Source: Candidatus Aenigmatarchaeota archaeon (lineage in GTDB: Archaea; Aenigmatarchaeota; Aenigmatarchaeia; GW2011-AR5). From it: a stretch of DNA of 47,427 nt. The stretch covers positions 1 through 47,427 of the forward strand of contig JAZDNV010000009.1 in NCBI GenBank assembly GCA_043799385.1, written 5' to 3'. Below are positions 6,378-36,906 of this stretch, piece after piece. Under the pieces are notes generated by a model. That model saw only the letters and a program-made list of their open reading frames with translations. It had not been told where the DNA came from and made no database searches. Every line of letters begins with the position of its first letter. Position 1 is the first letter of the stretch. The position numbers were made by a program, and so were the translations under genes.

Positions 6378-6381
6378 AATC

Positions 6382-7281: not shown

Positions 7282-7282
7282 A

Positions 7283-11884: not shown

Positions 11885-11893
11885 ACCAATCGT

Positions 11894-12217: not shown

Positions 12218-12385
12218 CTAATATCTCTTCTTCTTCATATAGCATTCTTTGCAGTAAACTGGCTTGCCCTCTGTAGGCTTGAACGGAACTTCGCATTCCT
12301 TTCCGCACTCAGAGCAAGTTGCTTTATGCATTTCGCGTGGACCAAAATCTCTCTTGAATCCACCCCTGCTTTCGAAATCTCTCAT
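12218..12385 (-). CDS. CxxC-x17-CxxC zinc-ribbon microprotein (55 aa; not in ORF track)
   Basis: Translation MRDFESRGGFKRDFGPREMHKATCSECGKECEVPFKPTEGKPVYCKECYMKKKRY*. Confidence 0.9.
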   Translation of the reverse strand: MRDFESRGGFKRDFGPREMHKATCSECGKECEVPFKPTEGKPVYCKECYMKKKRY

Positions 12386-12536
12386 ATATGTTTCCTCTTT
12401 TTTTATATAACATAGAAGAAAATTCTCATTTTCTCACATGCTAGTATGATTTTATTAACCGTAGTGTTTATAAACGTTGGGGGTTTATAAGCTTTTGCTT
12501 TACTGCAATTGCAAAAAAATAGCCAAAAGATAGCAT

Positions 12537-13643: not shown

Positions 13644-13646
13644 AAC

Positions 13647-16148: not shown

Positions 16149-16200
16149 GTTTACACCATTTTTTGAATACTTAATATTATTTTCAATATTATTTTCTGAT

Positions 16201-19200
16201 TTATCCGACGTTTATCTTTGGATATATTCCCAAGCATTTCAATTCGTCCAACATCAGGTTGAAAGCATAACTTATTTCCACGTCATTTATCTTGCTCTTC
16301 TTGCACACAGGGCAATACTTCCTTCCCTTTGCCTTGTCGTCTATTGCAATCAAGCCGCACTTGTCGCAGACAGGGAACGTATACTTATCGGACGAGAATC
16401 GCTCTTTCAGGAGCAATGCAGCTCCATGCGCAATCAAGCAATCCTTTTCCATTTCGCCGAGTCGCAGACCGCCTTGCTTTATTCTTCCGGCCGTCGGCTG
16501 CTTTGTCAGCAGCGTAACTGGGCCGCGCGCACGCGACTGTATCTTGTTCGCAATCATGTGGTGCAGCTTCTGATAATAACAAGGGCCAATGAGTATTCGC
16601 GCTTCATATGCTTTTCCTGTGACGCCATCGTACATCAATTCTTTGCCATCGTCACGAAAACCGAACTTCCTCAGTTCTTCTCTGATATTTTCTTCTGTAA
16701 CGCCGCTGAACACAGAGCCGTCGACGCGCACACCGCTCAATGACGATAGTTTTGATGCAACAATCTCGAGTAATTGCCCTACCGTCATTCTTGACGGGAT
16801 AGCATGCGGATTCAGAATTATGTCAGGGATTATTCCATCTGAAGTAAACGGCATATTTTCTTCTGGAACGATCAACGCAACGACTCCCTTCTGACCGTGA
16901 CGTGATGCAAATTTATCGCCAAGTTCGGGCATTCTCTCAGAACGCACGACGACTTTAATGAACTTGTTTCCTGATATTGTCTCGGTTATTATGATATTGT
17001 CTATTATTCCTTCTTCTCCGTATCTTATCGTCTCACTGGTCTCGCGGCGGCTGTCGGCTTCGACCATGAAGCCTTCAACTGGGCCGAAGAAACGAAGCGG
17101 CGATACTTTGCCTATCAGGACGTCGCCTGAGTTTATTGATATCTCCCTGTTTATTATTCCATCCTCTGCAAGATTCGCGTACGCCTCCTCGGTGCGATAT
17201 CCTGAAATGGATTTATCCGGTATTTTTATCTCATCCTTCTCGATTCCCCAGTATTTCTTTTCTTCCGTGGAATAAGTCCTGAAGAAATATGATCGGCCGA
17301 AACCGCGCTCTATTGACGCTTTGTTCATCACAACGCCGTCTTCCATGTTGTATCCCTTGAAGCTCATAATCGCCATCACTATGTTCTGGCCTTGCGGATG
17401 CTTTTTCATTCCAAGCTCTTCGCCGACAACCGTGTTCACGATCGGGACTTGCGGATACAGCAATACGTCTGATTTCGTTTCTGTTCTTGCCAGGAAATTG
17501 GCAGCGTAAACGCCAAGCGACTGGCCGCTCATCTTTGCACCGAAGTTGACACGGTCGCCACGATTATGCGTGGCAAAAGGCACTAATGATGCGGATAGAC
17601 CGAGAATCACTCCTGGATTTATTTCTAGATGAGTCGTCTCTTTTACTATATGGTCTGCATCGATTGCGACAAGGGAATTGTTTTCCTCTTCTGCATCCAG
17701 GTATTCAATTATGCCGTTCTTTACAAGATCCTCCCACTTCCATTCGTCCTTTTCCAATTTTTCAAAAGCGTCATCAGTCAATTTTGACTTTCCGTTTTCA
17801 ACAATTATCATTGGCCTTTGCAAACGTCCTGAATCTGTGTTTATGTAAATCTCTTCGAACTCAGGCGAATGTGATAATCCAATATTAGGGCTTATCTGGC
17901 ATGTCAATCTTTTCTTTTTTATCTTGTTTATAAATTCATCCGGAGCATTAGTGCTGCCTGCTATCATGCCGTCAAGGAATATTATGTATTTCTGCTCCTC
18001 GGCTGCCTTCGATTCTTTCTCTATCATGCTCATGATGAATTCCCTGTCCTTCCTGCTTGCTGTGACAGAGATGACAGAGAAAAGTGCGAGATATTTTCTT
18101 AGTCCTATGTTCACGCCCTCTGGCGTTTCCTCGCAGCATATGCGGCCCCAATGTGTCGCATGCAGGGCGCGCGCCTCGAAGTGCTCCTGCGATGCGGACA
18201 ACGGCGAGATAACGTTTCTGAGATGCGCGATTGTCCTTATCTGATTCGTTCTCTCCAATCTTTGGCAAACGCCTGTTCTGCCGCCAATCCACTGGCCGGT
18301 TGCCATGTGCGATATTATTCTTTTTGTCAGGTAATCACTTTCCACGATGGATTTTATCGCCGGCATCTTTCCCCTCTTAACTAATTTCTGATAAGAATAA
18401 ACGATCCTCGAAACCAAGCCGTATTTTCCCAATAGAATTGAACGGAACAACACTTCGAGAAAGTCGCCGACCATCTTCAATCGCTTGTTGCCGTAATGGT
18501 CGATGTCCTGTTCCTTTATCTGCTCTAAGCCGAGCTTCAGGACTTTTCTTATAACTTTCGCAAGGTATAGTGCTTTATCCTTCCTGAACTTTTTATCCTG
18601 ACCAATGTGCGGCAGCAGATATTTGTCCAGTATGTCATTTATTCGCTTGTCACGATACTCCTTTTGCGGTATCTTCAGTTTCTTTCCAATGTATTCTTTC
18701 GCTTCTTCTAATGTTTTGACATCATATTCATACAGGTTGAAGTACACCTCCTGCATCTCGTCCCTGTCTGCAGAAATCGCCTCTATCATTTCTTTGTCCG
18801 TCTCCAACCCCAGTGCACGGAACAGTATGACAACAGGCATCTTCTTCAGATTTGCGAACGATATCGTTATTATTCCGCCTTTTCTCTCTACGAGGTGGCG
18901 CTGCACGAATCCGGACGCTTCTGAATTTATTCTTGCCGTCTCGCTGTCCTTTTTCTTTTCTATGATAGGGCGATTGGACAAAACCTCTTCTACCATCACG
19001 ATTACTCGCTCGGTGCCATTGATTATGAAATACCCGCCGACGTCATCCGGGTCTTCGCCGCTGCTGACCAATTCCTCTTCGCTCATACCGTTCAGCGTGC
19101 ATTTCTTTGATTTGACCATTATCGGTAAATCACCAAGCTTTACCTCTTGCGGCTCCTGCTCAACGCCATTTATAATAGGCGTCATCTCAACGAATATCGG

Positions 19201-19509
19201 TGAGGAATAGGTTAAATCGCGAATTCGACATTCCATCGGCGTTATTCCACGTTTCTCCGGTCCTATGTTCACGCCGCCGTCTGCCTCCTTTATGCACGGT
19301 TTTGGTATGCGAACCTTTCCTATCTTTATCTTAAATTCTGCAATCTCGGGCGTCTCGAGCTCGATCTCGCTTATCTCGTCTACTATCTTCTGCACGCGGT
19401 ATTCAACGAATTCGTTGAACGATTCTATCTGATGGTCGACAAATCCGACAGAATTTTTGAATGAATTCAGAATCGTCTTGTATTTTTTCATATTTTCTTG
19501 CATTTCCAT
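16201..19509 (-). CDS. rpoB: DNA-directed RNA polymerase subunit B (unsplit)
   Basis: GYFIINGTERV, GDKFASRHGQKG, LNPHAIPSRMT and GGLRLGEME motifs; C-terminal zinc ribbon. Confidence 0.98.
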   Translation of the reverse strand: MEMQENMKKYKTILNSFKNSVGFVDHQIESFNEFVEYRVQKIVDEISEIELETPEIAEFKIKIGKVRIPKPCIKEADGGVNIGPEKRGITPMECRIRDLTYSSPIFVEMTPIINGVEQEPQEVKLGDLPIMVKSKKCTLNGMSEEELVSSGEDPDDVGGYFIINGTERVIVMVEEVLSNRPIIEKKKDSETARINSEASGFVQRHLVERKGGIITISFANLKKMPVVILFRALGLETDKEMIEAISADRDEMQEVYFNLYEYDVKTLEEAKEYIGKKLKIPQKEYRDKRINDILDKYLLPHIGQDKKFRKDKALYLAKVIRKVLKLGLEQIKEQDIDHYGNKRLKMVGDFLEVLFRSILLGKYGLVSRIVYSYQKLVKRGKMPAIKSIVESDYLTKRIISHMATGQWIGGRTGVCQRLERTNQIRTIAHLRNVISPLSASQEHFEARALHATHWGRICCEETPEGVNIGLRKYLALFSVISVTASRKDREFIMSMIEKESKAAEEQKYIIFLDGMIAGSTNAPDEFINKIKKKRLTCQISPNIGLSHSPEFEEIYINTDSGRLQRPMIIVENGKSKLTDDAFEKLEKDEWKWEDLVKNGIIEYLDAEEENNSLVAIDADHIVKETTHLEINPGVILGLSASLVPFATHNRGDRVNFGAKMSGQSLGVYAANFLARTETKSDVLLYPQVPIVNTVVGEELGMKKHPQGQNIVMAIMSFKGYNMEDGVVMNKASIERGFGRSYFFRTYSTEEKKYWGIEKDEIKIPDKSISGYRTEEAYANLAEDGIINREISINSGDVLIGKVSPLRFFGPVEGFMVEADSRRETSETIRYGEEGIIDNIIITETISGNKFIKVVVRSERMPELGDKFASRHGQKGVVALIVPEENMPFTSDGIIPDIILNPHAIPSRMTVGQLLEIVASKLSSLSGVRVDGSVFSGVTEENIREELRKFGFRDDGKELMYDGVTGKAYEARILIGPCYYQKLHHMIANKIQSRARGPVTLLTKQPTAGRIKQGGLRLGEMEKDCLIAHGAALLLKERFSSDKYTFPVCDKCGLIAIDDKAKGRKYCPVCKKSKINDVEISYAFNLMLDELKCLGIYPKINVG

Positions 19510-19530
19510 GTATTCACCATCGAATCAGAT

Positions 19531-19731
19531 TCAATCGAATCCTTCCATTCTTATATGAAGAGTATCGCCAACGAAATATGAATTACCAGCAATTCCAAGA
19601 TTTTTAAGCACCCTGCCTGCCACTTTCAATGAAAGGCTCTTGTCACCGCAAATGCCTAAACTGTAGTGCGAACGATTGCATGGAGATAACTCTTCTATTC
19701 CTGTTTTTATTTTTTCATACAATCCAAGCAT
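19531..19731 (-). CDS. Small hypothetical protein between rpoH and rpoB
   Basis: ORF fills the gap exactly; in-frame GTG overlaps the rpoH stop, ATG at 19731. Confidence 0.5.
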   Translation of the reverse strand: MLGLYEKIKTGIEELSPCNRSHYSLGICGDKSLSLKVAGRVLKNLGIAGNSYFVGDTLHIRMEGFD

Positions 19732-19736
19732 GATAA

Positions 19737-19979
19737 TCACACAACAACGCGATAATAATAATATTCTCCGACAGCGGGGTCATCTCTGGTGATTTTTATC
19801 ACATCCCCCTTCTTTGCGTTCAATCTTTTCACAACCGGGTCATCCTGGCTTATCTTTGGAAGCTGTTTTGTGGTGATGTTCAAATCCTTCAGAAAACCCG
19901 CCTTTTCATCCTCGGTGAGAACGTCATGCTTCGGCACCAGTTCGCTCTGAAAAATATCTATTATCTCTTCCTCTTCCAT
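19737..19979 (-). CDS. rpoH: RNA polymerase subunit H (Rpo5)
   Basis: LVPKHDVL, QLPKI..DDPV, GDVIKITR and YYRVV motifs; SD GGTGAG. Confidence 0.95.
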   Translation of the reverse strand: MEEEEIIDIFQSELVPKHDVLTEDEKAGFLKDLNITTKQLPKISQDDPVVKRLNAKKGDVIKITRDDPAVGEYYYYRVVV

Positions 19980-20004
19980 TCTCTCACCATCGATGAAATA
20001 ATTA

Positions 20005-20217
20005 TGGGCCCGACGGGATGTTCATGCAGCAAGCGTTGCTTACTCCATTTCGAACCCGCGACACCCGGCTAACCTTTTTCCGTCTTTGCGGAATTAAAAG
20101 GCCGATGCTCTTTCCTGTTTTCTCCTTCAGTCTTTCTTGATTAATCTTCGAATCCACATGGACGCCTTTGGCGTCATTTTGTTTACGAAGATTTATACCA
20201 GGCTGAGCTACAGGCCC
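20005..20217 (-). tRNA. tRNA-Lys(UUU) with three introns (D-loop 20112-20196, 37/38 20071-20094, 59/60 20019-20048)
   Basis: Spliced product GGGCCTGTAGCTCAGCCTGGT/AGAGCATCGGCCTTTTA/AGCCGGGTGTCGCGGGTTCGAA/TCCCGTCGGGCCCA folds as a 74-nt cloverleaf; each junction forms a strict or relaxed BHB. Confidence 0.9.
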
Positions 20218-20219
20218 AA

Positions 20220-20371
20220 CGCCCCGGTCGGGATGTTCTTCATTAAGGCATTACCTTAATAATTTTGAACCCGAGTCGCAGCCGAACTGTAACCTTTTCC
20301 GTCAACGCTTTTCGTTCGTGCCGAAACGGGTTGTGACAGGGCTGCATGCTAGGCCGCTACACCACCGGGGC
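20220..20371 (-). tRNA. tRNA-Asp(GUC) with two introns (37/38 20285-20333; 59/60 20234-20263)
   Basis: Spliced GCCCCGGTGGTGTAGCGGCCTAGCATGCAGCCCTGTCA/CGGCTGCGACTCGGGTTCAAA/TCCCGACCGGGGCG; canonical BHB with CTGT/ACAG and AACC/GGTT helices. Confidence 0.92.
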
Positions 20372-20374
20372 TTT

Positions 20375-20411
20375 CGTTTTTTTGATAAACCTTTTTTATA
20401 AAAAGGTTTAT
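20375..20411 (-). repeat. Family B hairpin element just upstream of tRNA-Asp
   Basis: Sense strand ATAAACCTTTTT-AT-AAAAAAGGTTTAT-CAAAAAAACG. Confidence 0.7.
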
Positions 20412-20501
20412 TCGTACGAGCATTATCTATTCTATTATCTCAATGCTATTCTCCAAAATATTTAAGAAATTTTGCATTGCACCACATGAACTATGATTCT
20501 A

Positions 20502-20539
20502 TCGTTTTTTGATAAATCTTTTTTTAAAAAAAGATTTAT
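20502..20539 (-). repeat. Family B hairpin element just downstream of 5S rRNA
   Basis: Sense strand ATAAATCTTTTTTTAAAAAAAGATTTAT (perfect 28-nt palindrome) followed by CAAAAAACGA. Confidence 0.7.
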
Positions 20540-20540
20540 G

Positions 20541-20662
20541 TGCAGTTAGCAACGTCCTGCTGTTTCCGGTTTGTGTCCAGTACTTAGCACATCGCTGGAG
20601 AGATTCACTTCCAAGTTCGGATGGGTTTGGGTCTAGCCTCTCCGCTTTGGTCGCCAACCACA
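20541..20662 (-). rRNA. rrf: 5S rRNA (unlinked from 16S/23S)
   Basis: About 122 nt; helix I GTGGTTGGCGAC/GTTGCTAACTGC; conserved CCCATCCGAAC..GGAAGTGAA core; helix II GGAGAG/CTCTCC. Confidence 0.88.
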
Positions 20663-20685
20663 AAGATTATTATACTACAGTCACT

Positions 20686-20701
20686 TATTTAAAGTTTTTC
20701 T
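20686..20701 (-). promoter_or_regulatory. BRE + TATA promoter of the 5S rRNA unit
   Basis: Minus strand AGAAAAACTTTAAATA about 25-30 nt upstream of the 5S 5' end. Confidence 0.65.
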
Positions 20702-20708
20702 CTACTGT

Positions 20709-20805
20709 GGCTTTGTTTAAAAATTGATGAGCATCATTTAGATGCTCATCGACGTTAGGTTATCAGCGCTAAAGCAAGCTGATAACCTAGTTTTTAAACA
20801 AAGCC
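20709..20805. repeat. Dispersed palindromic element, family A, copy 2
   Basis: Perfect 15-bp terminal IR GGCTTTGTTTAAAAA enclosing hairpins GATGAGCATC/GATGCTCATC and TAGGTTATCAGC/GCTGATAACCTA. Confidence 0.85.
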
Positions 20806-20889
20806 TTTACTGACGGATAACGAATAGAATTATTTCTCGCGTCTGCGAAACAAAAAAAGCCTTTTATACATCACTGATAAGTGATTATT

Positions 20890-21303
20890 ATGACGAGAAT
20901 GGCAGAGATTCTGGATTGTTACGAAAGGACTTATGGCCAGAAACCGTGGGTTGAACTGAGCTATGCTAGTTTTGATGGCTTTCAGATAGAGAAATACAGA
21001 ACCCATGGCATTGCCGAGGCGATATGCAGATTTTCGGATGCCAGGACCTGCCTCAGGGTTGAGCACTTCATTGTTGATGCACAACCCCTTCTGGAAATCG
21101 CACAGCCAAAATACGCCTGGTTCAGCAAAATTCTACCTGACTGTGTTGGCGTAGCCGTGTCTTCTGGAAAACAAAAACATGAGCATAATGCGGTTGAGCT
21201 CAATACACAGGAAATTATAGAAGGACTGGAGATAAGGTTCTATTCTGATACTAACAGACAGATGCCATTCACCGTTGAAATTGTGCCGTTATACAAACGG
21301 TAG
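20890..21303 (+). CDS. Hypothetical protein
   Basis: About 137-aa ORF preceded by AAAAAAAGCCTTTTATA (BRE/TATA-like); no recognisable motif. Confidence 0.55.
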   Translation: MTRMAEILDCYERTYGQKPWVELSYASFDGFQIEKYRTHGIAEAICRFSDARTCLRVEHFIVDAQPLLEIAQPKYAWFSKILPDCVGVAVSSGKQKHEHNAVELNTQEIIEGLEIRFYSDTNRQMPFTVEIVPLYKR

Positions 21304-21396
21304 CAACTTCGCCGCATAGAGGAAAGCGATGCCCAGTGCGATGGCTGCGATTACGATGATTATAATAATTAATGTTTTAAGGCTCATTTTGGTCAT
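21289..21396 (-). CDS. Single-TM microprotein (35 aa; not in ORF track)
   Basis: MTKMSLKTLIIIIIVIAAIALGIAFLYAAKLLPFV*; ATG abuts the TAG of the giant surface-protein gene. Confidence 0.6.
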   Translation of the reverse strand: MTKMSLKTLIIIIIVIAAIALGIAFLYAAKLLPFV

Positions 21397-24300
21397 CTAT
21401 TTCTTATTGTACTTGTAATAAAACTTCTTCACATGATGGTGGCCGTGATAATACAACCATCCTAATATGATTATCAAAACCATGACAGTTGCGATTATTC
21501 CAGGCCAGTAGTCGATCCATATCTGCGTCACTACCGTTGTTATCTCTGTTATCGTTTTTGGCATTTCTATTGGTTTTTCTGCTGGCTTGCAATCACTAGG
21601 GCAGCTATTGATGTTTTCGCTGCTCTCGCATTTACCGTCACCGCAGACCGGCCCTGACGGCTGAGTTGGCTGCTGCGGTTGCGCAGGCTTTTCAGCTGCA
21701 ACTACGAAAACGGACAACCCTGGTGAAGACGACTGATACTGTATATCTGTGTCGCTTTCGCCTATTTTTGATGTTATCATTTTCGTCCAGCCGCTGCTGT
21801 ACCTGTACAAATAAACATTATCGAACGTGAATCCATTCGTGTTCAGCCATGACTTTGTAACGTTAAATTTAATGCTGACCGAACTGATATCCGCATCGGT
21901 TATGTTCAGTGTTGTTATCTCTATCCATTGGTTGACTGTACCTGCTGGTGTCGTCACAGATGATGGTTGGCTTGATAGCCTTGTAACCGTCAGGGTAACA
22001 TCGGTCAGGTTCTTGTTAGACTTGAATTCTATTTCCTTGAACACAAGCGTCAGGTCGTTTAGCGTCATCTTGTTAGTGATGCCCGGAACCACGGTCATCC
22101 ATGTCTTCTTTGTTCCACCTGCTGCGCCTCCGCCGCCGCCGCCACCGCCACTACCGCCAGTCGTGGTTGTCGTGGTGTTTGATGTCGGCGAGTTTGTCCT
22201 CCATATGGAGAAGTCACAAGGTATCTTCCACTCGCAATAAGTCGCCGTGTTGTTCAGCAGCGTTGATTCTGAAGTTCGGTCTACGCAATTGCTGCCATCA
22301 TCCTGGCAGTGCCATACCTTTGTACATGTTCCATTATTTCCCTTTGGTATCTGAACGATGCAGTATTTAGGAACCAATTTCGTTGTCAGGTTGTCGAACA
22401 CAGAACTGTTCATGCCTACGTATCCTGCTCCGCCTGACTGGCCCTCTGTTACATTCAACAAGATTGAAAGCGAACCTATTAACGTTGCATTATCGAATAT
22501 TATCGAGCCGTTTGTTCCCTCGACTTTTACGTCTATAGTGGATGAAGTATAATTGAATTTCATTCCAGCATCTGCTCCGCAGCCGCCGCCCTGGTCAGCC
22601 CAGCCTGAGCCAGAATCGAACTTGACATTCGTTCCCTCGAATTTGACTGTGAATTCGCAGCTAGGACAATCTCTCCTGTTCCTGCTGTTTGATGTCGTGA
22701 AGTTCAGGCAAGCGGAATAACCGCAGTTGCCAGACGAATCGCATATCTTCAGTTTGTAATAATATGTTGTCGCGTTTGACAGGTTGTATCCAAGCCTTTG
22801 CGGATTGAATGCAAAATTATCTATCGGCCCGTCATGCCAGTTCTTGTAATTATCCCAACTATCATTGTTGAGCAAGCCTGAATCTAATAGAGTCTTGTTT
22901 ATCGTTCCGCAAACGCTGTCATTGTAATAGAATTGTATCGTGCCATTCGCTGGTTCGTCAGTATCATACTTTACGAATGCACCGTCAGGGTACGTCTCTA
23001 CTTTGTACCATTTCAGGCCAGGTGCAACTGTGTCATTGTATCCGGCTGCATTAACTCCTGTGCCCGCGCAGTTCATAGCAAACTTGCAATCAGGATCATT
23101 GCAATCAACCAAGCCATCACTATCCTCATCGTTACCGCTCGCAAAGCAATCCTCGTACATGATGAATCCCATCTGCTGGAATTTCATGCAGTCAGGGTCA
23201 TTTTCAGACGTGAAGCCGTCGTTGTCCATGTCAACTCCTGAAATCATGCAGTTCTCGAACTTGAAGTCTACTGTGCCCGGACTATAATATGAAGGTCCTA
23301 TTGCATCTATTGGATTGATTTCGCTTGCTGTCTTGCCGGCAGTTGATGCATACACCCGTATCTTCTTCTCTGGCTTGTATAGAGACTGGAACTTCTTCAA
23401 ATCGTCCTTGTCAACTGCTATCATTGCTCCGCCGATTTCCTCGCATACCAAATTCTGCCAGACGCTTAATTTTATATCAGTTATGACCCAGTCGCCGTCG
23501 TCGCATCTGTAGGACGTTTTCGTCTCTTTCAGCTCGCCGTCACTCCATTTGGCTATGTACTTCAGGAAGAATTCATATCCTACTGCAGATGCATTATTAT
23601 AAAGTGGGCAACCGCCGCTTTCGATTCCATCGGTGTCAAGGTACCAGTAGAACTTTGTCGTGTTCGTTCCGCTGCCAGAAATCGTCGTTCTCGTTGACTG
23701 GTTTGCCAGGACCTGCTGGCCCTTGCACAAAGCAGAGTCTTTCATGCTGAACACCATTGTTCCGAATGCAAAGTTATCGGGCATATCCCTGACTCCGAAA
23801 CCGCATATGTCCTGTGGCTGATCTATCGCCTCAGGGCACGTGTCCATTCCCAATGGTACTGGCTCTCCGCTCTCCATTCCCTTGAACATCTGCTTTGCCA
23901 TTTTCGGCTCGCAGAAACCAAGACGCCAGTTGCAGTAAGGCATGTTGCCAAGGCACGCATTTGAAGTTGAATAATTGAAACATCTCGGCTCGCACGTGCT
24001 CATGTTCGTGCCGGTAAATGCACCGCCACCGCCGACTGGACCGCCTTCTATCCCAAAACCGCCGCCGCCTGCGCCACCAAAGCCGAATTCGCTGCCTCCC
24101 ATCATTGTTTTTGTAACCCATGCACAGTTTCCTGCTGCGACGCCGCCTAGATCGCCATTACAGTCAGCCGGATTCGAATATATGTGGCACCTCATCAGGA
24201 TGAAGTCACAGTATCCGTTTCCAGACATGTCTGCAACCCATGTGCAGTTGCCTGTACACGAAGTCTGATTCTTTATATTCATGCAGTTGTTCATGAGGGT

Positions 24301-27300
24301 CTGATTCATATCGCAGGAACCGCCTGCTGACTTCCACTCACATGATTTTGCCAGGCCGCAATTATATGAGTCGCTGTACTGCCAGCAGTCCTCTGACTTC
24401 ATACCCAAAGACGATGCAGGATCGCAGAAGCCCGACACCCACACGCAATCAGTGGTGCTATTGCACGTTGAGAATATCTGGTAAGCGCTGCTGTCGCATT
24501 TGTCCGTGCACTCGCCCTTTGACGCGTTCAGCTGGTCAGGTATCCAGCTACAGTATGCAGTCGTATTCTGGCATAGTGATTTACCGTAACTGCTGCATTT
24601 TACAAGCTTGTATTCGCACGTGCCTGTGCCTGTTGACGGATTAAATGTCCACTTGCAGTCTGAATTGGCCTTGCATGAGCCTTCAGCTGTTAGTTTAAAG
24701 CATGTCTCAATCTTTGTATTATTAATCTCGCAATAACCGCCCTTAGGGTCGTTGTACCACTGGCACAATCCTGATTGGTTAGCGCAGCCAGACGGGTTGC
24801 CGTCCCACATGAAGCAGTTCTCGCCTTTTGTTCCGCACCACGTCTTGCCTGCCCATGAATCAATTATCCATAGGCAGTTCTCAGATGAGTGGTTGGCGCA
24901 TATAGTTTGTGTCGTATACTTCCAGCAATCAGAAACCATGCCTGCTCCGCAGAACGGATCAGAATAACAATCAACGTCTTCGCAATCGGTCTTGCCGTCA
25001 CCGTCGTCGTCAGTGCCGTCAAAGCATATCTCCTTGTCAAAGTTCTTTGGCTTGCATAATTTTATATTTTCATCCCATACGCAGCTTCCTTTTGTGCCTT
25101 TTCCGTAATTCACGCATGAAACCTCGTCATAACAGCGGAAGCAGTCTTCGCTACATGATTTCTCGCTCTGCGGATAGCACCAGCCGCCAGCAGTAGTCGT
25201 TCCAGCACTATCTTCTACCCACTTGCAGTTTGCAGACGATGACTCACACGTAGTTTTCGGTGACGCTTTCTTCTCGCATGCTTTGCAATCAGAGTTGCAA
25301 TCGCCTTTGCCGAACTTTATGTCATCCGGCATCTTGCAGTAACCAAAGCCGTTCGGTGCAGTGTTATTGGTGGTCCAGTTACAATATCCGAGTTTAGAGC
25401 CCTTGCACGCGCCTATTGCCTCTGTGGCATTGTTCCACATTGTTCCGTTCGGCCGGTATTCGCAAGCCCAGCAGGATGCGTCGCAGCTCTTGCCTGATGC
25501 ACCTGACTTTACCTCGCACCAGCCGTAAGGCACGGTCTTATTATTCTCGCAGTAGTATTCCTGTTTCCAGATGCCACCGGCGAATTCGCAGTCTTTCTTG
25601 CTCATTATCTTTCCTAAATCCTTTCCGCCTGTACCGAATTTTTCGTCTGACCTGAACGTGCAGCGATCATCAGATGTATCAACAGTTCCCATGCTGTCCC
25701 ATTTGCAAGGCATATACCACGGGTCTGCTGCTATCTGGTTGCATAACGTTTGATCAGTATAAGAATTGTAATCCTCGCAGTATGTTGCACCTTCTGGCGA
25801 TGGCTGCATGTTCTCGAAGCACTTTGCACTTACTGTATCTGCCTGGCATGTGTTGTTCTGCCATTTGCAGCACGATGCAAGGACAGGTATCTTGCTGCAT
25901 AACGTTGAGGATGAAATATTACCGCACTGTATGCCTGACTCAAGACCGACACACTGCGATGAATTGGCAGACCATCCGCAACCAGTGACATTCTGGCACT
26001 TTGTTTTCTGATTATCAAATATCCAGCAACCAGGGTTCATCTTGTCCTGCTCGAACTGGTTAATCCATGTGTTAGAAGGCTCTTCACATGTTCCGTTTAC
26101 GTTCCACCAGCAATATCCGCTGTTCTTGCATCCGGTTTCATTATTACTGTATTGAGAGCAGCCTGTCATAGACTCGCCGCAATAGCCGTTCTGCCAGCTG
26201 CAGGACAGGTTATATAATGCCGTTGCATTGCCACACGTAGATTGGTTGAACATCCAGCATCTTCGTTCCTCGCAGTAGCTGTTCGTGCTCCACGAACAGT
26301 TCTTGGCTGTACAAGAATCGCTGTCGTGATAAACCCAGCAGCCCTCGTTAGTGCACCATCCTAATCCGGTTGAATCCCATATGCAGCCAGCGTCTCTGCA
26401 TGCAGTGGTATTAGGGTATGCCCAGCAACCTACCTCACTGCAATAATTATATATTTCATTCCAGGTACAGTTCATTCTGTCAGTATTGTTCACGCATCCG
26501 GATTGGTTCCAGTAGTTCCAACAGCCCTTCATGTCGCACCAGCTGCTTCCAACATTCGTTACCCATCTGCACCTTGAGTTATTACCGCAGCCGGTTGAAT
26601 TCGTATAATTCCAGCAATTTACATTGCACCATCCGTATTCCTTCCATTCGCAGTTTAGTCCTGAACCCTGGCATTGGGTTTGATTATTAAAGAAGTTCCA
26701 GCAGCCGACCTCCTCGCACCAGCCTGATGACGTCGCGGTCGCCCAGCTGCAGCTCAGGTCAGCAGATGTTAAATTGCATGACGACTGGTTCGTATATTCC
26801 CAGCAACCTTTCTTTGTGCAGTATGGCGATTGCCACTTGCATGTGGCATTCATCGCTGTGCATCCGGTTTCATTGTAATCATAATTCCAGCAGCTGAGTG
26901 TTGTTGGCTCAGAACAATAGCCGCCGGATGATGACCAGTTGAATCCTGCACCAACACAGGTGGATTGGGTATTGTAATTCCACGGGCCGAGCTCTTCGCA
27001 CCACGTACTCTGCGTCCAGTTGCAGCCAGGCGAAGCTAGGCATGTATCATTGGTCCAGTAGTTCCAGCAGTTCGTGCCTGTTGAATTAAAGGAACCGCAC
27101 CATCCTGACGTCTTCCAGTTGCAGTTTAGAGTATCCGATGAATTTAGGCATGAGTTATTGTTATTATAATTCCAGCAGCCGACCTGGTAGCAATAATTAT
27201 AAGATTCCCATGTGCAGTTTATCGTACTGTGCAACGTAGAATTGTCGCAATTTGTCTGGTCGTAATAGTTCCAGCAGTTCGGCTCGTAGCAGTAATTAGA

Positions 27301-29028
27301 CTGATTGTTCCATAAACAATTCGGCACCGCAGTGCAGTTCGTCTGATTGTTGTAGTTCCAGCAGCCGTATTCCTGGCAATAGCTGTATGTTGAATCCCAT
27401 TTGCACATATCGGATAATGCATGCGCATCGCAATCTGTTTTTGTATTGTAGCTCCAGCAACCTTTCTCAGAGCACGAACCCCACGAATACCAGTTGCATG
27501 TATTGTCTGCGGCACATGTATTGTTTGTCGTGTAATCATAGCAACCAGTCTTCTGGCAGTAAGAATTTATTGTCCAGTTGCAGTTTAGTGTATCGTTCGT
27601 AGCCATACATCCGTCCTGAGAATAATAGTTCCAGCAGTATGGCTTATAACAATAACTTCCGCTCAATGACCACGTGCAACCATAAGTACTCGCAGCATCG
27701 CATGACGATTGATTGCTGTAACTCCAGCAACCCTTGTCAGAGCAGTAATTATATGTACCATCCCACGTACAGTCATAAGTATCAGTCGCATTCGAGCATG
27801 TTTCGTTTGTATTGAGACTCCAACACCCATAGTTTGTGCAATAACTGTATGTCGAGTTCCATCTGCAGTCATCAGATGCATGGGCGATGCACGTTGACTC
27901 ATTATAATAATTCGAGCAATATATTTGGTTGCAGTAGCCGTATGTCTTCCAGCTGCAGCCCAAAGATGAGGCAGCACTGCACGTAGCATTTGCCGCGTAA
28001 TTCCAGCAGCCCGGCTCTTCGCAATAACTCCACTGGGAGTTCCAACTGCAGACAGGATTCGCCGAAGCTGTGCATGTTGCGTTTGTATTTAAATTCCAGC
28101 AACTTGTCTTTGAGCAATAACTGCCGTCCCAAGTACATGTCAGATTCGGGTGAGCTGTTGTGTTTGAGCACGTTGCGTTTGTCATATAACTCCAGCAAGT
28201 GATTTCATTGCAATAACTATAATTGAAGTTCCACTCACAGTTCAAGGACGGATGCAGCGATGAATCTGTGCACGTTGCATTTGTATTGTAAAGCCAGCAG
28301 GATTTCTGCGTGCAGTACTCGCTACCAGACCATGAGCATTTGGGATTGCTCGAGCACGTATCCTTTGTGTATATGTTCCAGCATGTTGTCATGTTCTCTT
28401 TGCAATAACCACTACTGCCCTGCGAGCCCCATGCGCAGTTCGCGTTAAGATGCAACGTTGTGTCCGTGCAGTTTCCCTGGTCGTAATAGCTCCAGCAACC
28501 AACTTCAGAGCATGTGCCTGACGTCCATGTGCAGCTGGCGCCCTGACACCCAATCTGGTCATTGTAATTCCAGCAGCTCTTGCTCGAATCGCCCGAACAG
28601 TAGCCGTAGGACGAGTCCCACTTGCATGTCAGATTATCAGTCGTGCTTCCGCATGATGATGAATCCTTGTAGTCCCAGCAGTTGGGTTTAGTGCAATAAC
28701 CATAACCTGTCCAGTTGCAGTTGCCCGGGCAGGTTGTAGAATTGTAATTCCAGCAGGTTTTTTTATAACACCAGCCGCCACCCCACGTTGAGTTCTCCCA
28801 TGTGCAGTTCGCAACGTTGCAGCTCGACTCATTATAATAATTCCAGCAGCCCTTCTCCTCGCACCAACCGTATGATGGCTGCGCGTGCCACTGGCAACCG
28901 CCTACTGCAGAACATGTAACATTTGTACCAAAGTTCCAGCAACCTGTTACGGCAGCAAAGCCGATACTGAAGAGCAAGAAGAATGAGAAGAACAGAGCTA
29001 ATGCGAGTAGTTTTTTACTCAAATTCAT
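21397..29028 (-). CDS. Giant secreted, membrane-anchored Cys/Trp-repeat surface protein with PGF-pre-PGF-like domain
   Basis: Signal peptide; about 40 four-Cys repeats (CWxY..C..CxW..C); three DxDxDG..DxDC motifs; FN3-like segment (YYYKLKICDSSGN); Thr/Gly linker; SPGLSVFVV; CGDGKCE..EN..SCPSDC; C-terminal TM with basic tail. Confidence 0.9.
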   Translation of the reverse strand: MNLSKKLLALALFFSFFLLFSIGFAAVTGCWNFGTNVTCSAVGGCQWHAQPSYGWCEEKGCWNYYNESSCNVANCTWENSTWGGGWCYKKTCWNYNSTTCPGNCNWTGYGYCTKPNCWDYKDSSSCGSTTDNLTCKWDSSYGYCSGDSSKSCWNYNDQIGCQGASCTWTSGTCSEVGCWSYYDQGNCTDTTLHLNANCAWGSQGSSGYCKENMTTCWNIYTKDTCSSNPKCSWSGSEYCTQKSCWLYNTNATCTDSSLHPSLNCEWNFNYSYCNEITCWSYMTNATCSNTTAHPNLTCTWDGSYCSKTSCWNLNTNATCTASANPVCSWNSQWSYCEEPGCWNYAANATCSAASSLGCSWKTYGYCNQIYCSNYYNESTCIAHASDDCRWNSTYSYCTNYGCWSLNTNETCSNATDTYDCTWDGTYNYCSDKGCWSYSNQSSCDAASTYGCTWSLSGSYCYKPYCWNYYSQDGCMATNDTLNCNWTINSYCQKTGCYDYTTNNTCAADNTCNWYSWGSCSEKGCWSYNTKTDCDAHALSDMCKWDSTYSYCQEYGCWNYNNQTNCTAVPNCLWNNQSNYCYEPNCWNYYDQTNCDNSTLHSTINCTWESYNYCYQVGCWNYNNNNSCLNSSDTLNCNWKTSGWCGSFNSTGTNCWNYWTNDTCLASPGCNWTQSTWCEELGPWNYNTQSTCVGAGFNWSSSGGYCSEPTTLSCWNYDYNETGCTAMNATCKWQSPYCTKKGCWEYTNQSSCNLTSADLSCSWATATSSGWCEEVGCWNFFNNQTQCQGSGLNCEWKEYGWCNVNCWNYTNSTGCGNNSRCRWVTNVGSSWCDMKGCWNYWNQSGCVNNTDRMNCTWNEIYNYCSEVGCWAYPNTTACRDAGCIWDSTGLGWCTNEGCWVYHDSDSCTAKNCSWSTNSYCEERRCWMFNQSTCGNATALYNLSCSWQNGYCGESMTGCSQYSNNETGCKNSGYCWWNVNGTCEEPSNTWINQFEQDKMNPGCWIFDNQKTKCQNVTGCGWSANSSQCVGLESGIQCGNISSSTLCSKIPVLASCCKWQNNTCQADTVSAKCFENMQPSPEGATYCEDYNSYTDQTLCNQIAADPWYMPCKWDSMGTVDTSDDRCTFRSDEKFGTGGKDLGKIMSKKDCEFAGGIWKQEYYCENNKTVPYGWCEVKSGASGKSCDASCWACEYRPNGTMWNNATEAIGACKGSKLGYCNWTTNNTAPNGFGYCKMPDDIKFGKGDCNSDCKACEKKASPKTTCESSSANCKWVEDSAGTTTAGGWCYPQSEKSCSEDCFRCYDEVSCVNYGKGTKGSCVWDENIKLCKPKNFDKEICFDGTDDDGDGKTDCEDVDCYSDPFCGAGMVSDCWKYTTQTICANHSSENCLWIIDSWAGKTWCGTKGENCFMWDGNPSGCANQSGLCQWYNDPKGGYCEINNTKIETCFKLTAEGSCKANSDCKWTFNPSTGTGTCEYKLVKCSSYGKSLCQNTTAYCSWIPDQLNASKGECTDKCDSSAYQIFSTCNSTTDCVWVSGFCDPASSLGMKSEDCWQYSDSYNCGLAKSCEWKSAGGSCDMNQTLMNNCMNIKNQTSCTGNCTWVADMSGNGYCDFILMRCHIYSNPADCNGDLGGVAAGNCAWVTKTMMGGSEFGFGGAGGGGFGIEGGPVGGGGAFTGTNMSTCEPRCFNYSTSNACLGNMPYCNWRLGFCEPKMAKQMFKGMESGEPVPLGMDTCPEAIDQPQDICGFGVRDMPDNFAFGTMVFSMKDSALCKGQQVLANQSTRTTISGSGTNTTKFYWYLDTDGIESGGCPLYNNASAVGYEFFLKYIAKWSDGELKETKTSYRCDDGDWVITDIKLSVWQNLVCEEIGGAMIAVDKDDLKKFQSLYKPEKKIRVYASTAGKTASEINPIDAIGPSYYSPGTVDFKFENCMISGVDMDNDGFTSENDPDCMKFQQMGFIMYEDCFASGNDEDSDGLVDCNDPDCKFAMNCAGTGVNAAGYNDTVAPGLKWYKVETYPDGAFVKYDTDEPANGTIQFYYNDSVCGTINKTLLDSGLLNNDSWDNYKNWHDGPIDNFAFNPQRLGYNLSNATTYYYKLKICDSSGNCGYSACLNFTTSNSRNRRDCPSCEFTVKFEGTNVKFDSGSGWADQGGGCGADAGMKFNYTSSTIDVKVEGTNGSIIFDNATLIGSLSILLNVTEGQSGGAGYVGMNSSVFDNLTTKLVPKYCIVQIPKGNNGTCTKVWHCQDDGSNCVDRTSESTLLNNTATYCEWKIPCDFSIWRTNSPTSNTTTTTTGGSGGGGGGGGAAGGTKKTWMTVVPGITNKMTLNDLTLVFKEIEFKSNKNLTDVTLTVTRLSSQPSSVTTPAGTVNQWIEITTLNITDADISSVSIKFNVTKSWLNTNGFTFDNVYLYRYSSGWTKMITSKIGESDTDIQYQSSSPGLSVFVVAAEKPAQPQQPTQPSGPVCGDGKCESSENINSCPSDCKPAEKPIEMPKTITEITTVVTQIWIDYWPGIIATVMVLIIILGWLYYHGHHHVKKFYYKYNKK

Positions 29029-29061
29029 TGTAATCTTGATTTTTATTATATCTTTCCCGAA

Positions 29062-29075
29062 ATATAAAGTTTTTT
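29062..29075 (-). promoter_or_regulatory. BRE + TATA for the giant surface-protein gene
   Basis: Minus strand AAAAAACTTTATAT about 35-45 nt before ATG 29028. Confidence 0.5.
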
Positions 29076-29221
29076 ATGGGGGTTTTTCTGTTTTTTTGAT
29101 TGTAATGCATGTGTAATTTCCTTCGCAATCTTTCTTTGCTTTGTCTGAAAATTAAATTTTTATAAGCATTTCATCTATAGATAAGAATAGACCAACGCAT
29201 ATCAATGCATTTATGCGTTTT

Positions 29222-29427
29222 GCTGGCATGACAGAGCGGCCATGTGCTTGCCTGCAGTAAGCTTCTTTTTTGAAAAAGAAGCTTAATCAAGAAAATCTCT
29301 CAATTTCCAAAAGAAAAGGGAATGAGGGTAAAGGGAGAATACACACCGAAGCACCTTTGGTGCTTCAAGCAGTTTATTTCTCCTTTGCAGAGAGCAAGAT
29401 AGCCCGGTTCAACTCCGGGTGCCAGCT
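29222..29427 (+). tRNA. tRNA-Cys(GCA) with a 135-nt 37/38 intron (29258-29392)
   Basis: Exons GCTGGCATGACAGAGCGGCCATGTGCTTGCCTGCAG / AGCAAGATAGCCCGGTTCAACTCCGGGTGCCAGCT; BHB central helix CTGC/GCAG. Confidence 0.9.
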
Positions 29428-29429
29428 TT

Positions 29430-29522
29430 ATAATCTTCGTAAGCAAGATGACGTAAAACAGAATGACGCCAAAGGCGTCCGTGTGTTTGCATCTGTGTGT
29501 TTTCGAAGATTAATCAAGAAAA
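29430..29522 (+). repeat. Family B palindromic element with a doubly nested core, directly 3' of tRNA-Cys
   Basis: TAATCTTCG...ATGACGCCAAAGGCGTCC...CGAAGATTAATCAAGAAA, near-identical to the tRNA-Lys D-loop intron. Confidence 0.85.
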
Positions 29523-29527
29523 GTGAA

Positions 29528-30025
29528 ATGATGAGGGCACTAATAATTTTGTTTGTCGCTGTGGTATTGATTGCAGCGATTATCTTCGTTAATTCGTGCT
29601 ACAGCACGCCAATGAAAATAATATCGACGCCGGACGTGTCGAAAGTGGGTTACGTTCCTGTGGATGTGCAGATGGACGGAACAAGCATTATCTTCTCAGC
29701 TGATTGCTACTCGATATCGATGGAAATAACAGACGAGCAGGCGTATTCGATAAAAAGCGCGCTGGAAAAAAAGATTGTATCACGGCCGCTGACGCACGAC
29801 ATAATAAAAGACATGCTGGAGGGCTTTGACTTCAAGATTCTAATGATCAGGATAGAATCGTATAACGATGAGATATACTATGCAAGGATAATCCTTCAGA
29901 AGGGTGACAAAGTCCTTGAGATGGATTCGCGCCCCAGCGACGCGACTGCGATAGCGATAAGGATGGACGAGAAGATTTATTTCAGCGAGGATTTGCTGAA
30001 AACTTACGGAACAAAGAGCTGTTGA
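29528..30025 (+). CDS. Bifunctional nuclease (DUF151/BFN) domain protein with N-terminal membrane anchor or signal
   Basis: RPLTHD and DSRPSDATAIA motifs; hydrophobic N-terminus; start at ATG 29528. Confidence 0.85.
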   Translation: MMRALIILFVAVVLIAAIIFVNSCYSTPMKIISTPDVSKVGYVPVDVQMDGTSIIFSADCYSISMEITDEQAYSIKSALEKKIVSRPLTHDIIKDMLEGFDFKILMIRIESYNDEIYYARIILQKGDKVLEMDSRPSDATAIAIRMDEKIYFSEDLLKTYGTKSC

Positions 30026-30026
30026 T

Positions 30027-30794
30027 ATGGGAAAAAAGAAAGAAATCAAGATAAGATATTCAAATTTTATTTTTGTATTCACCGTGATATTCATGGTCGG
30101 CTTCATTCTCGGCACCCATCTTTCTCCGCTGAAAGAGAAAATAGTCGAAAAAGAAATCGTGCGGTATATAACCAATACTACAGGCGAAAGAAGCGTCGAG
30201 ATGCTCGTGCCTGCGGTCAACGCAGACGGCAACGGAGTTGCCGCGAAGCTGATAACAACTGTTCGTCCGGGCTCAGGCTCGCTGCTTGTCAGCGTTAACG
30301 ATGTGCTTGCACAATATGACACACAGTTATCCGGCCGCATGGCAGCGGAAGTGGCAGGCAATTACACTGGCAAAGACATGAATTCGTATGACGTGATATA
30401 CTCAATAGAGGTGAACGCCTCGGCGATAGAGGGCCCTTCTGCCGGAGCTGCGATGACGGTATCGATAATATCCGCTCTGCAAGGCATGGTTTTGAACAAG
30501 AGCGTCATGATAACCGGAGCAATCTATGAGGACGGCACGATTGGCCAAGCCGGAGCGATATACGAAAAGATGCTCGCTGCAAAGGATAACGGCATCACTA
30601 CGTTTCTAATTCCAGTCAACCAGTCGATTGATTACGCTGTCAAGCGCGATAAGAAATGCGAGATGCTTGGCAAAACAGAATACTGCAAGATAAATTATAT
30701 CCACGACAGGTCGATAATCGGCGATGAGATAAACATGACCGTGATCGAAGTAGGCAATATCGGCGATGCGGTGAAGTATTTCTTTTTAAAGTAA
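30027..30794 (+). CDS. Membrane-anchored S16 (Lon-type) Ser-Lys protease without ATPase domain
   Basis: EGPSAGAAM, ITGAIYEDGTIG and YEKMLAA motifs; N-terminal TM. Confidence 0.88.
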   Translation: MGKKKEIKIRYSNFIFVFTVIFMVGFILGTHLSPLKEKIVEKEIVRYITNTTGERSVEMLVPAVNADGNGVAAKLITTVRPGSGSLLVSVNDVLAQYDTQLSGRMAAEVAGNYTGKDMNSYDVIYSIEVNASAIEGPSAGAAMTVSIISALQGMVLNKSVMITGAIYEDGTIGQAGAIYEKMLAAKDNGITTFLIPVNQSIDYAVKRDKKCEMLGKTEYCKINYIHDRSIIGDEINMTVIEVGNIGDAVKYFFLK

Positions 30795-35694: not shown

Positions 35695-36906
35695 ATGTCC
35701 TATGTTGACCTCAATTACAAGCCAAAACAAGATATAGTCTGCGATTTCTACGCAGAGCCGTCTAATCGAAAAACGTGCGAAGCAATAGCAGCAGAATCGT
35801 CGATTGGCACGTGGACAGACGTTGCAACGGCAAAGCCATATGTCAAGAAATTGGCTGCAAAGGTTTTTTCAATCGATAAAAATAGAATCAAAATCGCATA
35901 CCCTATTGAGCTATTCGAGTACGACAACGTTCCGCAAATACTCAGCAGCGTTGCCGGCAATATTTTTGGCATGAAGGCTGTCAATAATCTGCGGTTGGAA
36001 GACATTCATCTCCCAGAGAAAATCGTCCGCTCATACGATGGTCCGAAATTCGGCATAGCAGGAATAAGAAAGATACTGCGCGTCAGGAAGCGGCCGCTAG
36101 TCGGAACGATAGTAAAACCGAAACTCGGCCTGAATACAAAAGACCATGCCAAAGTCGCGTACGACGCCTGGATAGGTGGTTGTGATATTGTAAAAGACGA
36201 TGAGAATCTGAGCAACCAGAGATTCAATCCATTCAAAGCGCGCGTCATAGAAACGCTGAGAATGCGCGACCACGCGGAGAAAGAGACGGGCGAACGGAAA
36301 GTCTACATGCCAAACGTTACCGCAGAAACGAAAGAAATGCTCAGACGTGCAGCGTTTGTGAAGAAAAACAACGGCGAATACGTCATGGTCGATATTATAA
36401 CCTGCGGCTTCTCATCGCTGCAATCGCTGCGCAATCAGGATTTGAATCTGGTCATTCACGCTCACCGTGCGATGCACGCGGCGATAACAAGAAATAAAAA
36501 GCATGGCATAAGCATGCTCGTGATTGCGAAACTAGCAAGACTGATTGGCGTCGACCAGCTGCACACAGGCACTATTGTTGGGAAATTAGAGGGCGGAAAA
36601 GAAGTTATTGATATTGACAACGAATTGAAGAAAAAGTGGTACCGAATAAAGCCTACGTTTCCCGTCTGCTCTGGCGGATTATCGCCACTGCACGTTCCGC
36701 AATTGATGAAATTTTTCGGTCGCGACATTATAATACAGATGGGCGGTGGTATTCACGGTCATCCCTCAGGCACTTTAGCCGGGGCGAGAGCTGTAAGACA
36801 GGCAGTTGACGCAACGATGAGCGGCGCTTCGCTTAAGGATTATTCAAAGAAACATCACGAACTTGCGGCAGCTCTGCAGAAATGGGGAGTAAGGAGTTAC
36901 GAATAA
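35695..36906 (+). CDS. rbcL: RuBisCO large chain, form III
   Basis: AAESSIGTWT, GTIVKPKLG, catalytic GCDIVKDDE, HAHRAMHAA, HTGT..GKLEG, SGG and GGGIHGHP motifs; no small subunit. Confidence 0.95.
   Translation: MSYVDLNYKPKQDIVCDFYAEPSNRKTCEAIAAESSIGTWTDVATAKPYVKKLAAKVFSIDKNRIKIAYPIELFEYDNVPQILSSVAGNIFGMKAVNNLRLEDIHLPEKIVRSYDGPKFGIAGIRKILRVRKRPLVGTIVKPKLGLNTKDHAKVAYDAWIGGCDIVKDDENLSNQRFNPFKARVIETLRMRDHAEKETGERKVYMPNVTAETKEMLRRAAFVKKNNGEYVMVDIITCGFSSLQSLRNQDLNLVIHAHRAMHAAITRNKKHGISMLVIAKLARLIGVDQLHTGTIVGKLEGGKEVIDIDNELKKKWYRIKPTFPVCSGGLSPLHVPQLMKFFGRDIIIQMGGGIHGHPSGTLAGARAVRQAVDATMSGASLKDYSKKHHELAAALQKWGVRSYE

Follow-up and report, generated by a model that had tools for sequence, protein, structure and literature searches.

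Why should one kind of small hairpin recur both inside transfer RNA (tRNA) introns and in the flanks of stable-RNA genes of a single archaeon? This question is raised by a 47,427-nucleotide (nt) stretch of contig JAZDNV010000009.1 from a Candidatus Aenigmatarchaeota archaeon (hereafter called the window), in which an earlier note had described a family of palindromic elements. We found five sense-strand hairpins at the two stable-RNA loci of the window, each followed by the tail (A)ATCAARAAA. As that note had claimed, the element occupies tRNA introns and the discarded flanks of stable-RNA genes, and it forms a strand-specific family. In total there are 12 copies in six genomes (five in the window and seven elsewhere), all found with a biased probe, and the data span 47 kb of the source genome and pieces of about 1 kb from each of the other genomes. 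The explanation we tentatively place first is that these sequences might constitute a strand-specific RNA hairpin-and-tail spacer module that is read by a host factor and is reused in introns as an intron-side helix.

The five hairpins stand where they had been reported and fold better than shuffled sequences, with z-scores from -2.7 to -4.6. Two of them are of a long form. Copy A has an outer stem of 8 base pairs (bp; AAUCUUCG/CGAAGAUU), an inner hairpin (GACGCC-AAA-GGCGUC) and the tail AAUCAAGAAA, and copy B has the same outer stem, inner hairpin and tail together with about 30 nt of additional internal stem. The three blocks that the intron copy A and the free copy B were said to share are indeed present in both, namely the outer stem, the inner hairpin and a 20-nt 3' block. 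Copy C, which is of a short form, is a 12-bp hairpin (UAAGCUUCUUUU/AAAAGAAGCUUA) followed by the tail AUCAAGAAA. The exact sequence TTAATCAAGAAA occurs three times in the window, confined to copies A, B and C, and is replaced by TTTATCAAAAAA in copies D and E, whose tails read TATCAAAAAA. These last two are near-duplicates lying 127 nt apart, with a 12-bp hairpin (AUAAACCUUUUU/AAAAAGGUUUAU) and the tail CAAAAAAA in D, and a 12- to 14-bp hairpin (AUAAAUCUUUUU(UU)/(AA)AAAAAGAUUUAU) plus the tail CAAAAAA in E. Their stem register is one base off relative to the tail, and the remainder aligns with C.

Copy A begins 0 to 1 nt past the 5' splice site of the tRNA-Lys D-loop intron, and copy C begins at the first intron base of tRNA-Cys. 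Copy B starts 3 nt past the discriminator base of tRNA-Cys and ends 6 nt ahead of the ATG of an open reading frame (ORF) for a BFN-domain nuclease (29528-30025). Copy D ends 5 nt ahead of the tRNA-Asp +1 position, and copy E starts 4 nt past the 3' end of 5S ribosomal RNA (rRNA) and has a sense-strand T7 run within it. The entire span 20112-20196 had previously been taken as the hairpin element of the tRNA-Lys intron; the element does lie in this intron, but the intron runs 21 nt beyond it. No further copies were recovered in the window by a regular-expression scan or by two covariance models. The 91-nt spacer between E and D gives no sign of a small RNA, as it folds no better than shuffles (z +0.64).

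Table 1. Stable-RNA genes and element copies in the window, and the loci in other archaeal genomes that carry the element. Bulge-helix-bulge is abbreviated BHB; R2 is the covariance model described in the text.
Feature	Source	Position	Strand	Description
5S rRNA	Window	20658-20544	-	Rfam RF00001, 61.5 bits
tRNA-Lys(UUU)	Window	20005..20217	-	Three introns: 20196-20112, 20093-20070, 20048-20019
tRNA-Lys D-loop intron	Window	20196-20112	-	85 nt; relaxed BHB: helix CCUG/CAGG, bulges GU|A, AA|A
tRNA-Asp(GUC)	Window	20220..20371	-	Two introns: 20333-20285, 20263-20234; element in neither
tRNA-Cys(GCA)	Window	29222..29427	+	One 135-nt intron, position 37/38 (29258-29392)
Copy A, long form	Window	20195-20133	-	Fold -21.7 kcal/mol, z -3.9; R2 20.8 bits
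Copy B, long form	Window	29431-29521	+	z -4.4; R2 14.9 bits
Copy C, short form	Window	29258-29294	+	54.2 bits; R2 47.4 bits
Copy D	Window	20411-20377	-	z -4.6; R2 30.9 bits
Copy E	Window	20539-20505	-	z -4.1; R2 29.5 bits
L102	Micrarchaeota			Module nearly fills the 37/38 intron of tRNA-Thr(UGU); module + 6 nt
L063	Micrarchaeota			Module starts 2 nt past tRNA-Ala; a tail-to-tail antisense copy, a sense copy and degenerate units follow
L045	Aenigmatarchaeota			rpL5-rpS14 spacer, mostly module; rpL5 stop codon forms the first three bases of the module
L070	Pacearchaeota			Module between two type IV pilin genes
L019	Unclassified archaeon			Long form, inner hairpin as in A/B; 34.9 bits; outside the training set

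The covariance model R2 was trained only on L045, L063, L070 and L102, which come from four other genomes, and it therefore includes no window sequence. This model ranks all five window copies above every unrelated sense-strand site, the best of which reaches 13.1 bits, and yields E-values of 6e-7, 9e-4 and 2e-3 for copies C, D and E, respectively. The low score of B arises because the model leaves out the large loop insert of this copy. When C, D and E are read in antisense, their covariance-model scores fall by about 25 bits.

The copies in other genomes came from a pattern scan of genome contigs with the 15-base pattern AAGNTTAATCAAGAAA. This pattern was too loose, and at least 118 loci were listed (12 archaeal and 106 bacterial), of which 113 are chance matches and five are useful. 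In these five, all of them from DPANN or unclassified archaea, the matching arm upstream of the tail is present as well. The 113 chance loci served as controls because each holds the tail by construction. A covariance-model score of at least 34.9 bits is reached by five of the 12 archaeal loci and by none of the 106 bacterial ones, and the best of the remaining 113 loci (29.8 bits) is the bacterial control L092. Furthermore, the inner hairpin GACGCCAAAGGCGUC and the stem words CUUCUU/AAGAAG recur, though the search pattern demanded neither. In L063, the antisense copy at 622-661 scores 40.1 bits and the sense copy following it 36.2 bits, and the resulting tandem and inverted cluster, which resembles arrays of repetitive extragenic palindromic (REP) sequences, fills the spacer between the tRNA and the next ORF. 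We also observed the tail-like words CTTAATCAGAA and ATAATCAGAA in L102 (about 225-250 in reverse-complement numbering), where they lie 8-30 nt 5' of tRNA-Thr and have no hairpin.

Across the family, the element is an A/U-rich hairpin with a pyrimidine-rich 5' arm, a purine-rich 3' arm and the foot UAAR.../...YUUA, followed by a single-stranded, purine-rich tail, (A)AUCAARAAA. In a structural alignment of 10 copies, 94% of cells pair. The proposal that the stems covary also holds, with both-sided change in three of the 11 pairs and a covariation score that none of 500 shuffles equals, in an alignment that was fitted to the model and thus favours structure. The loop varies in size from 3 to about 73 nt. 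This variation, together with the covarying stems, argues for a folded single strand rather than a double-stranded DNA site of fixed spacing.

Orientation and position follow the local genes. Eleven of the 12 copies are in sense, including all five in the window, where both DNA strands are represented, and six of the seven elsewhere. The element had been said to lie always on the transcribed strand, which is true of the window but not of the antisense copy in L063. The hairpin foot is no more than 2 nt from the 5' splice site in all three introns that carry the element, and copies start 2, 3 and 4 nt past the mature 3' ends of tRNA-Ala, tRNA-Cys and 5S rRNA, respectively. An upstream end can be defined for nine copies; it belongs to a 5' exon in three, to a tRNA in two, to 5S rRNA in one and to a stop codon in one, and the other two copies overlap it. 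In all nine, the foot lies at this end or up to 5 nt after it. Targeting of stable RNAs, another feature that had been proposed, describes all five window copies, but elsewhere the element is also found in the rpL5-rpS14 spacer and between pilin genes.

The tRNA genes that host or adjoin the element were reconstructed by joining their exons by coordinate, which gives canonical cloverleaves for tRNA-Lys, tRNA-Asp and tRNA-Cys in ARAGORN. All six introns have two 3-nt bulges around a 4-bp helix, with four of four pairs formed in five introns and three of four in one. The BHB of the tRNA-Cys intron is strict at its core (CUGC/GCAG, bulges AG|U and AG|A), and the tRNA-Lys D-loop intron has no flanking exon helix. 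At 85 and 135 nt, the two introns that bear the element exceed the other four in length (24-49 nt). In tRNA-Cys, copy C looks like an addition placed between the bulge of the 5' splice site and an older helix of the intron.

Run on the whole window, ARAGORN reported no tRNA and Rfam at its gathering score reported only the 5S rRNA. Rfam 15 applied to 19500-30500 with E-values up to 10 returned the 5S rRNA and two weak, unrelated matches only. The three tRNAs were missed because their introns are long or multiple. Therefore, tRNA counts in such intron-rich genomes are likely too low, which matters for annotation. We also noted that tRNA-Asp (20263-20234) and tRNA-Lys (20048-20019), both on the minus strand, carry 30-nt introns at T-loop position 59/60 that end in GAACA before TCCCG and look paralogous. 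A published account (PMC3239211) describes multi-intron tRNAs with 59/60 introns in ARMAN-2/Micrarchaeum, where they are cut by a broad-specificity endonuclease.

How might such a module work? We envisage that it forms in the discarded parts of highly expressed DPANN transcripts, starting just downstream of an upstream functional piece, which may be a tRNA, 5S rRNA, a 5' exon or a stop codon. Its tail would remain accessible to a conserved host factor, probably a nuclease or some other protein that binds RNA, and this factor would separate or protect the neighbouring units. In introns, the hairpin would supply or add to the intron-side helix beside the 5' splice-site bulge and would be removed with the intron. 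The two copies with a T-run/A-run centre allow an additional reading, in which D stands where the promoter of a leaderless tRNA-Asp would lie and the T7 run of E where a 5S terminator would. The data show the structure of the element, its conservation, strand and positions, and the BHB geometry of the host introns; action at the RNA level, recognition of the tail by a protein, and any cleavage or protection are inferred. A folded strand, the sense bias, the placement of the foot at upstream ends and the recurrence in at least three DPANN lineages together favour an RNA-level spacer module. This recurrence speaks for a conserved host factor no less strongly than for mobility.

Several observations weigh against such a module. 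The trans-acting factor for hairpin and tail is a postulate. A processing or protection signal has no obvious use within introns, yet three of the 12 copies are intronic. The antisense copy and the degenerate tandem cluster of L063 look more like the arrays formed by REPs and bacterial interspersed mosaic elements (BIMEs) than like a signal, and the identical blocks around variable inserts in A and B are as expected of recent duplicates. The search pattern fixed 15 tail and foot bases, and cross-lineage conservation is therefore partly there by construction. Finally, the five window copies are all concentrated in stable-RNA loci that together span about 1 kb, and none occurs elsewhere in the non-coding window sequence of roughly 4.8 kb, a distribution that a general spacer signal does not predict. 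The tail-like motif is also absent from positions -14 to -5 of ordinary window promoters, and thus the tail is not a general promoter element.

Other RNA-level roles were considered and set aside. A guide RNA of the H/ACA or C/D type was rejected because there are no such boxes, no K-turn and no Rfam match. The tail does not serve as the intron strand of the BHB central helix, which lies 15 nt (A) and 92 nt (C) further on. An excised trailer formed by a BHB around copy B was dismissed by eye, as no complementary 4-mer is plausibly placed. A tRNA-like minihelix for RNase P or RNase Z was also considered, and here the loops, at 3 to about 73 nt, are not T-loop-like.

The closest competitor to an RNA-level spacer module is a selfish element. 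It is doubtful, though worth serious consideration, that the hairpins are a non-autonomous palindrome resembling REPs or miniature inverted-repeat transposable elements (MITEs), multiplying either at the DNA level or in a transcription-coupled manner. Such an element would, with similarly modest plausibility, survive only in discarded transcript, meaning introns, leaders, trailers and intercistronic spacers. If it landed in introns already present, it might enlarge them and could become their structural core, which we again regard as somewhat improbable. Consistent with these ideas, A and B are near-identical paralogues around variable inserts, with internal duplications in B, and D and E are a closely spaced pair of near-duplicates. 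L063 has a tail-to-tail inverted pair plus degenerate tandem copies. The great length of both element-bearing introns is also as expected, copy C is flanked by the 5' bulge on one side and, on the other, by a separate intron helix adjoining the BHB on its 3' side, the tRNA-Thr intron of L102 is almost entirely module, and the L045 spacer is mostly so. In addition, the window has a second family of nested palindromes, and two articles (PMC4090602, PMC3239211) report that tRNA introns of Thermoproteales have been inferred to transpose, by a mechanism that is unknown.

Against this stands the lack of the usual marks of mobility. The likeness to REPs and MITEs that had been suggested is borne out by the clustering in L063 but not by the boundaries of the copies. 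By eye, there are no terminal inverted repeats beyond the hairpin, which is the sole inverted repeat, no target-site duplication or other direct repeat flanks any copy, and no target flank is conserved. The REP hallmark, GTAG or CGTC 5' of the palindrome, is absent from the 10 strong sense copies, and a conserved tag lies on the 3' side instead. A Pfam scan of 34 window ORFs gave no match to transposase families, and copy B found no match in a phage collection and a single chance match (a Vibrio plasmid, E 0.9) in a plasmid collection. The strand follows transcription, which is unusual in REPs and MITEs. Lastly, for foot, stem words and tail to be alike in Aenigmatarchaeota, Micrarchaeota and Pacearchaeota, a selfish element would have had either to spread horizontally more than once or to rely on a mobilising enzyme of very high conservation.

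A more specific analogy, to IS608 and the HUH enzymes that recognise its ends, did not survive for the features compared. In IS200/IS605 elements, a guide tetranucleotide 5' of the hairpin foot matches the cleavage site. Here the 5' flanks of the 10 strong sense copies (GGTA, TTTA, GCAG, CGAA, CACA, AGAA, CATA, AATA, CTTG and ATAA) are not conserved, and none is TTGA-like or complementary to TCAA. There are no distinct left and right hairpins of the IS200/IS605 kind, as each copy has a single one. Moreover, RAAA follows TCAA in all 10 of these copies, so TCAA is not the end of the element, and similarity is lost only past RAAA. A Pfam scan of 34 ORFs of the window found no HUH Y1 gene of the REP-associated tyrosine transposase (RAYT) kind. 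Orientation tracks transcription on both strands within 9 kb and thus does not fit a replication-strand bias.

It is unlikely that DNA-level transcription signals in an A+T-rich genome gave rise to the hairpins as by-products. Under this explanation, the palindromes of T runs and A runs would be TATA boxes and oligo-T terminators, and the tail, just as improbably, a mere spacer from TATA box to start site. The centres of D and E (CCTTTTTATAAAAAA and TCTTTTTTTAAAAAAA) do resemble window promoter boxes. In archaeal core promoters, the BRE/TATA element sits about 26 nt upstream of the start. Among 22 ORF starts tested, TATA-like boxes end 21-23 nt before the ATG in five of the eight ORFs that have a box, and the box in D ends 23-25 nt before the tRNA-Asp +1 position, a distance at which D could plausibly be the promoter of a leaderless tRNA-Asp. 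The T7 run of E lies on the sense strand 4-18 nt past 5S rRNA. Coding sense strands have no T7 in 42.7 kb (versus 23 A7 runs), and E is thus a plausible 5S terminator. A degenerate unit of L063 (CTTTTAAAAAAG...) also lies, by eye, at promoter distance from a Shine-Dalgarno-led ORF. However, a promoter in D and a terminator in E cannot explain the intronic copies or the copies without such centres, and a TATA-like centre is missing from A, B, L019, L045, L070 and L102. E has a TATA-like box but no known product, and the spacer after it is unstructured. Base-pairing is not needed by promoters, yet the stems covary, and a promoter or terminator within a tRNA intron would be harmful. Copy C places T6 inside an essential tRNA gene. 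A variant in which the tail or the 3' foot is itself the TATA box was rejected, since by counting its start sites would fall inside tRNA-Asp or ORFs.

Still less probable, in our judgment, is a role for the hairpin-plus-tail module as the vehicle by which tRNA introns are gained and enlarged in DPANN archaea. A mobile hairpin, transcription-coupled or acting at the RNA level, would enter the sense strand of highly expressed RNA genes. The insertion would be tolerated because a broad-specificity splicing endonuclease can use the hairpin as the intron-side helix, and in providing such a usable helix the module would seed or enlarge BHB introns. Copies that lie in trailers, leaders and operon spacers would, in that case, be the element in its free stage. 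Chance likeness among low-complexity, A/T-rich hairpins is very improbable, because although the stems are largely homopolymer runs, a loose 12-mer with two mismatches occurs 19 times in the window against about 10 expected and the bacterial control L092 approaches 30 bits, the ranking and E-values from R2 owe nothing to window sequence and high scores are found only among the archaeal loci.

Other features of the window were noted along the way. Its gene set is archaeal (RNA polymerase A', A'' and B, SRP54, PCNA, aIF2-gamma and a RuBisCO large-subunit homologue), and of the 13 relatives of its aIF2-gamma that carry an organism name, 12 belong to Aenigmarchaeota or Aenigmatarchaeota, with the top non-self match 77% identical. 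The RuBisCO homologue (35695-36906) occurs in a DPANN-like genome that also carries a purine-synthesis gene run at 1000-9982 (PurM-like, PurL/PurS, PurQ, PurB, PurC and PurE). On the minus strand, 11480-20658 holds 5S rRNA, tRNA-Asp, tRNA-Lys, a small ORF (from about 19968 downwards, starting about 35 nt past tRNA-Lys), RNA polymerase B, A' and A'', and a NusA-like KH protein. With no evident terminator after tRNA-Lys, this region may be one long transcription unit. Between the two stable-RNA loci, a minus-strand ORF of 2543 amino acids (21397-29028) has no Pfam match and is made up of many diverged repeats with short DNA words in common, for example TTCCAGCAGCC on the plus strand; its probable product is a cysteine-rich repeat protein. 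At 42800-42890 there are tandem 9- to 12-nt repeats resembling CTTCGTCGTCTCC (plus strand), which on the minus strand would encode an acidic low-complexity stretch.

The second family of nested palindromes comprises 20709-20805 and 38107-38191. Both have perfect outer stems of 15-16 bp (GCTTTG...AAAAA / TTTTT...CAAAGC) and perfect inner hairpins, with T5 after each. The first bases of the copy at 38107 are the stop codon of a gene for a major facilitator superfamily transporter, and its inner hairpin (38147-38174) has the foot TAAGCT/AGCTTAAT of copy C and a T-rich tail.

Families of small palindromic repeats are a known kind of sequence, as are introns that resemble one another in different tRNAs, but a module that BHB introns have in common with ordinary spacers, and that recurs across DPANN lineages, seems to be new. 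A search of full-text literature gave no description of the motif, and the motif-string matches inspected were unrelated eukaryotic or virological papers. To our knowledge, RNA processing in DPANN archaea is almost unstudied, and either a mobile element or a processing or protection signal would, if true, be new for these organisms. A hairpin with an A-rich tail that recurs in introns and RNA-gene flanks hints at how tRNA introns grow, although its function is putative. A defined module of 35-90 nt that is found in both introns and spacers is also a concrete object for studying tRNA intron gain.

REPs and BIMEs, with their RAYT enzymes, share several properties with the module, including a short palindrome with a one-sided single-stranded tag, a non-coding nature, several copies, a location in extragenic transcribed spacers and, in L063, tandem and inverted clustering. 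The tag of the module is a purine-rich 9-10-mer on the 3' side, whereas that of REPs is a 5' GTAG or CGTC tetranucleotide. Unlike REPs, the module has A/U-rich stems and a strong sense bias, resides inside tRNA introns and has no RAYT gene among the window ORFs. The module resembles the ends of IS200/IS605 elements such as IS608, and of their non-autonomous derivatives, the palindrome-associated transposable elements, in that its hairpin could fold in single-stranded DNA and has TCAA directly 3' of it. The module differs from IS608 in its one hairpin type, its conserved bases past TCAA, the lack of a 5' guide tetranucleotide and of tnpA or tnpB in the window, and an orientation that tracks transcription. 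Rickettsia palindromic elements and Neisseria Correia elements are small palindromes tolerated in or beside essential genes of small genomes, and some carry promoter, terminator or RNase sites. They differ from the module in being longer, in having terminal inverted repeats or target duplications and in being confined to one genus.

Among structured RNAs, the C/D box small RNA in the tRNA-Trp intron is likewise carried in a BHB intron, from which the splicing endonuclease would release it. The module differs from this RNA in having neither C/D nor H/ACA boxes and no Rfam match, and in occurring outside introns as well. The nearest precedent for intron gain lies in the Thermoproteales. According to PMC4090602, gain of archaeal tRNA introns by transposition has been inferred from sequence similarity, with the vehicle and mechanism not known. 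The source archaeon resembles the Thermoproteales in having many multi-intron tRNAs and presumably a broad-specificity splicing endonuclease. The work of Fujishima et al. (2010), as it is represented in PMC4090602 and PMC3239211, describes whole introns that are alike. By comparison, what is shared here is a module smaller than an intron, common to introns, trailers, a leader and mRNA spacers across DPANN lineages.

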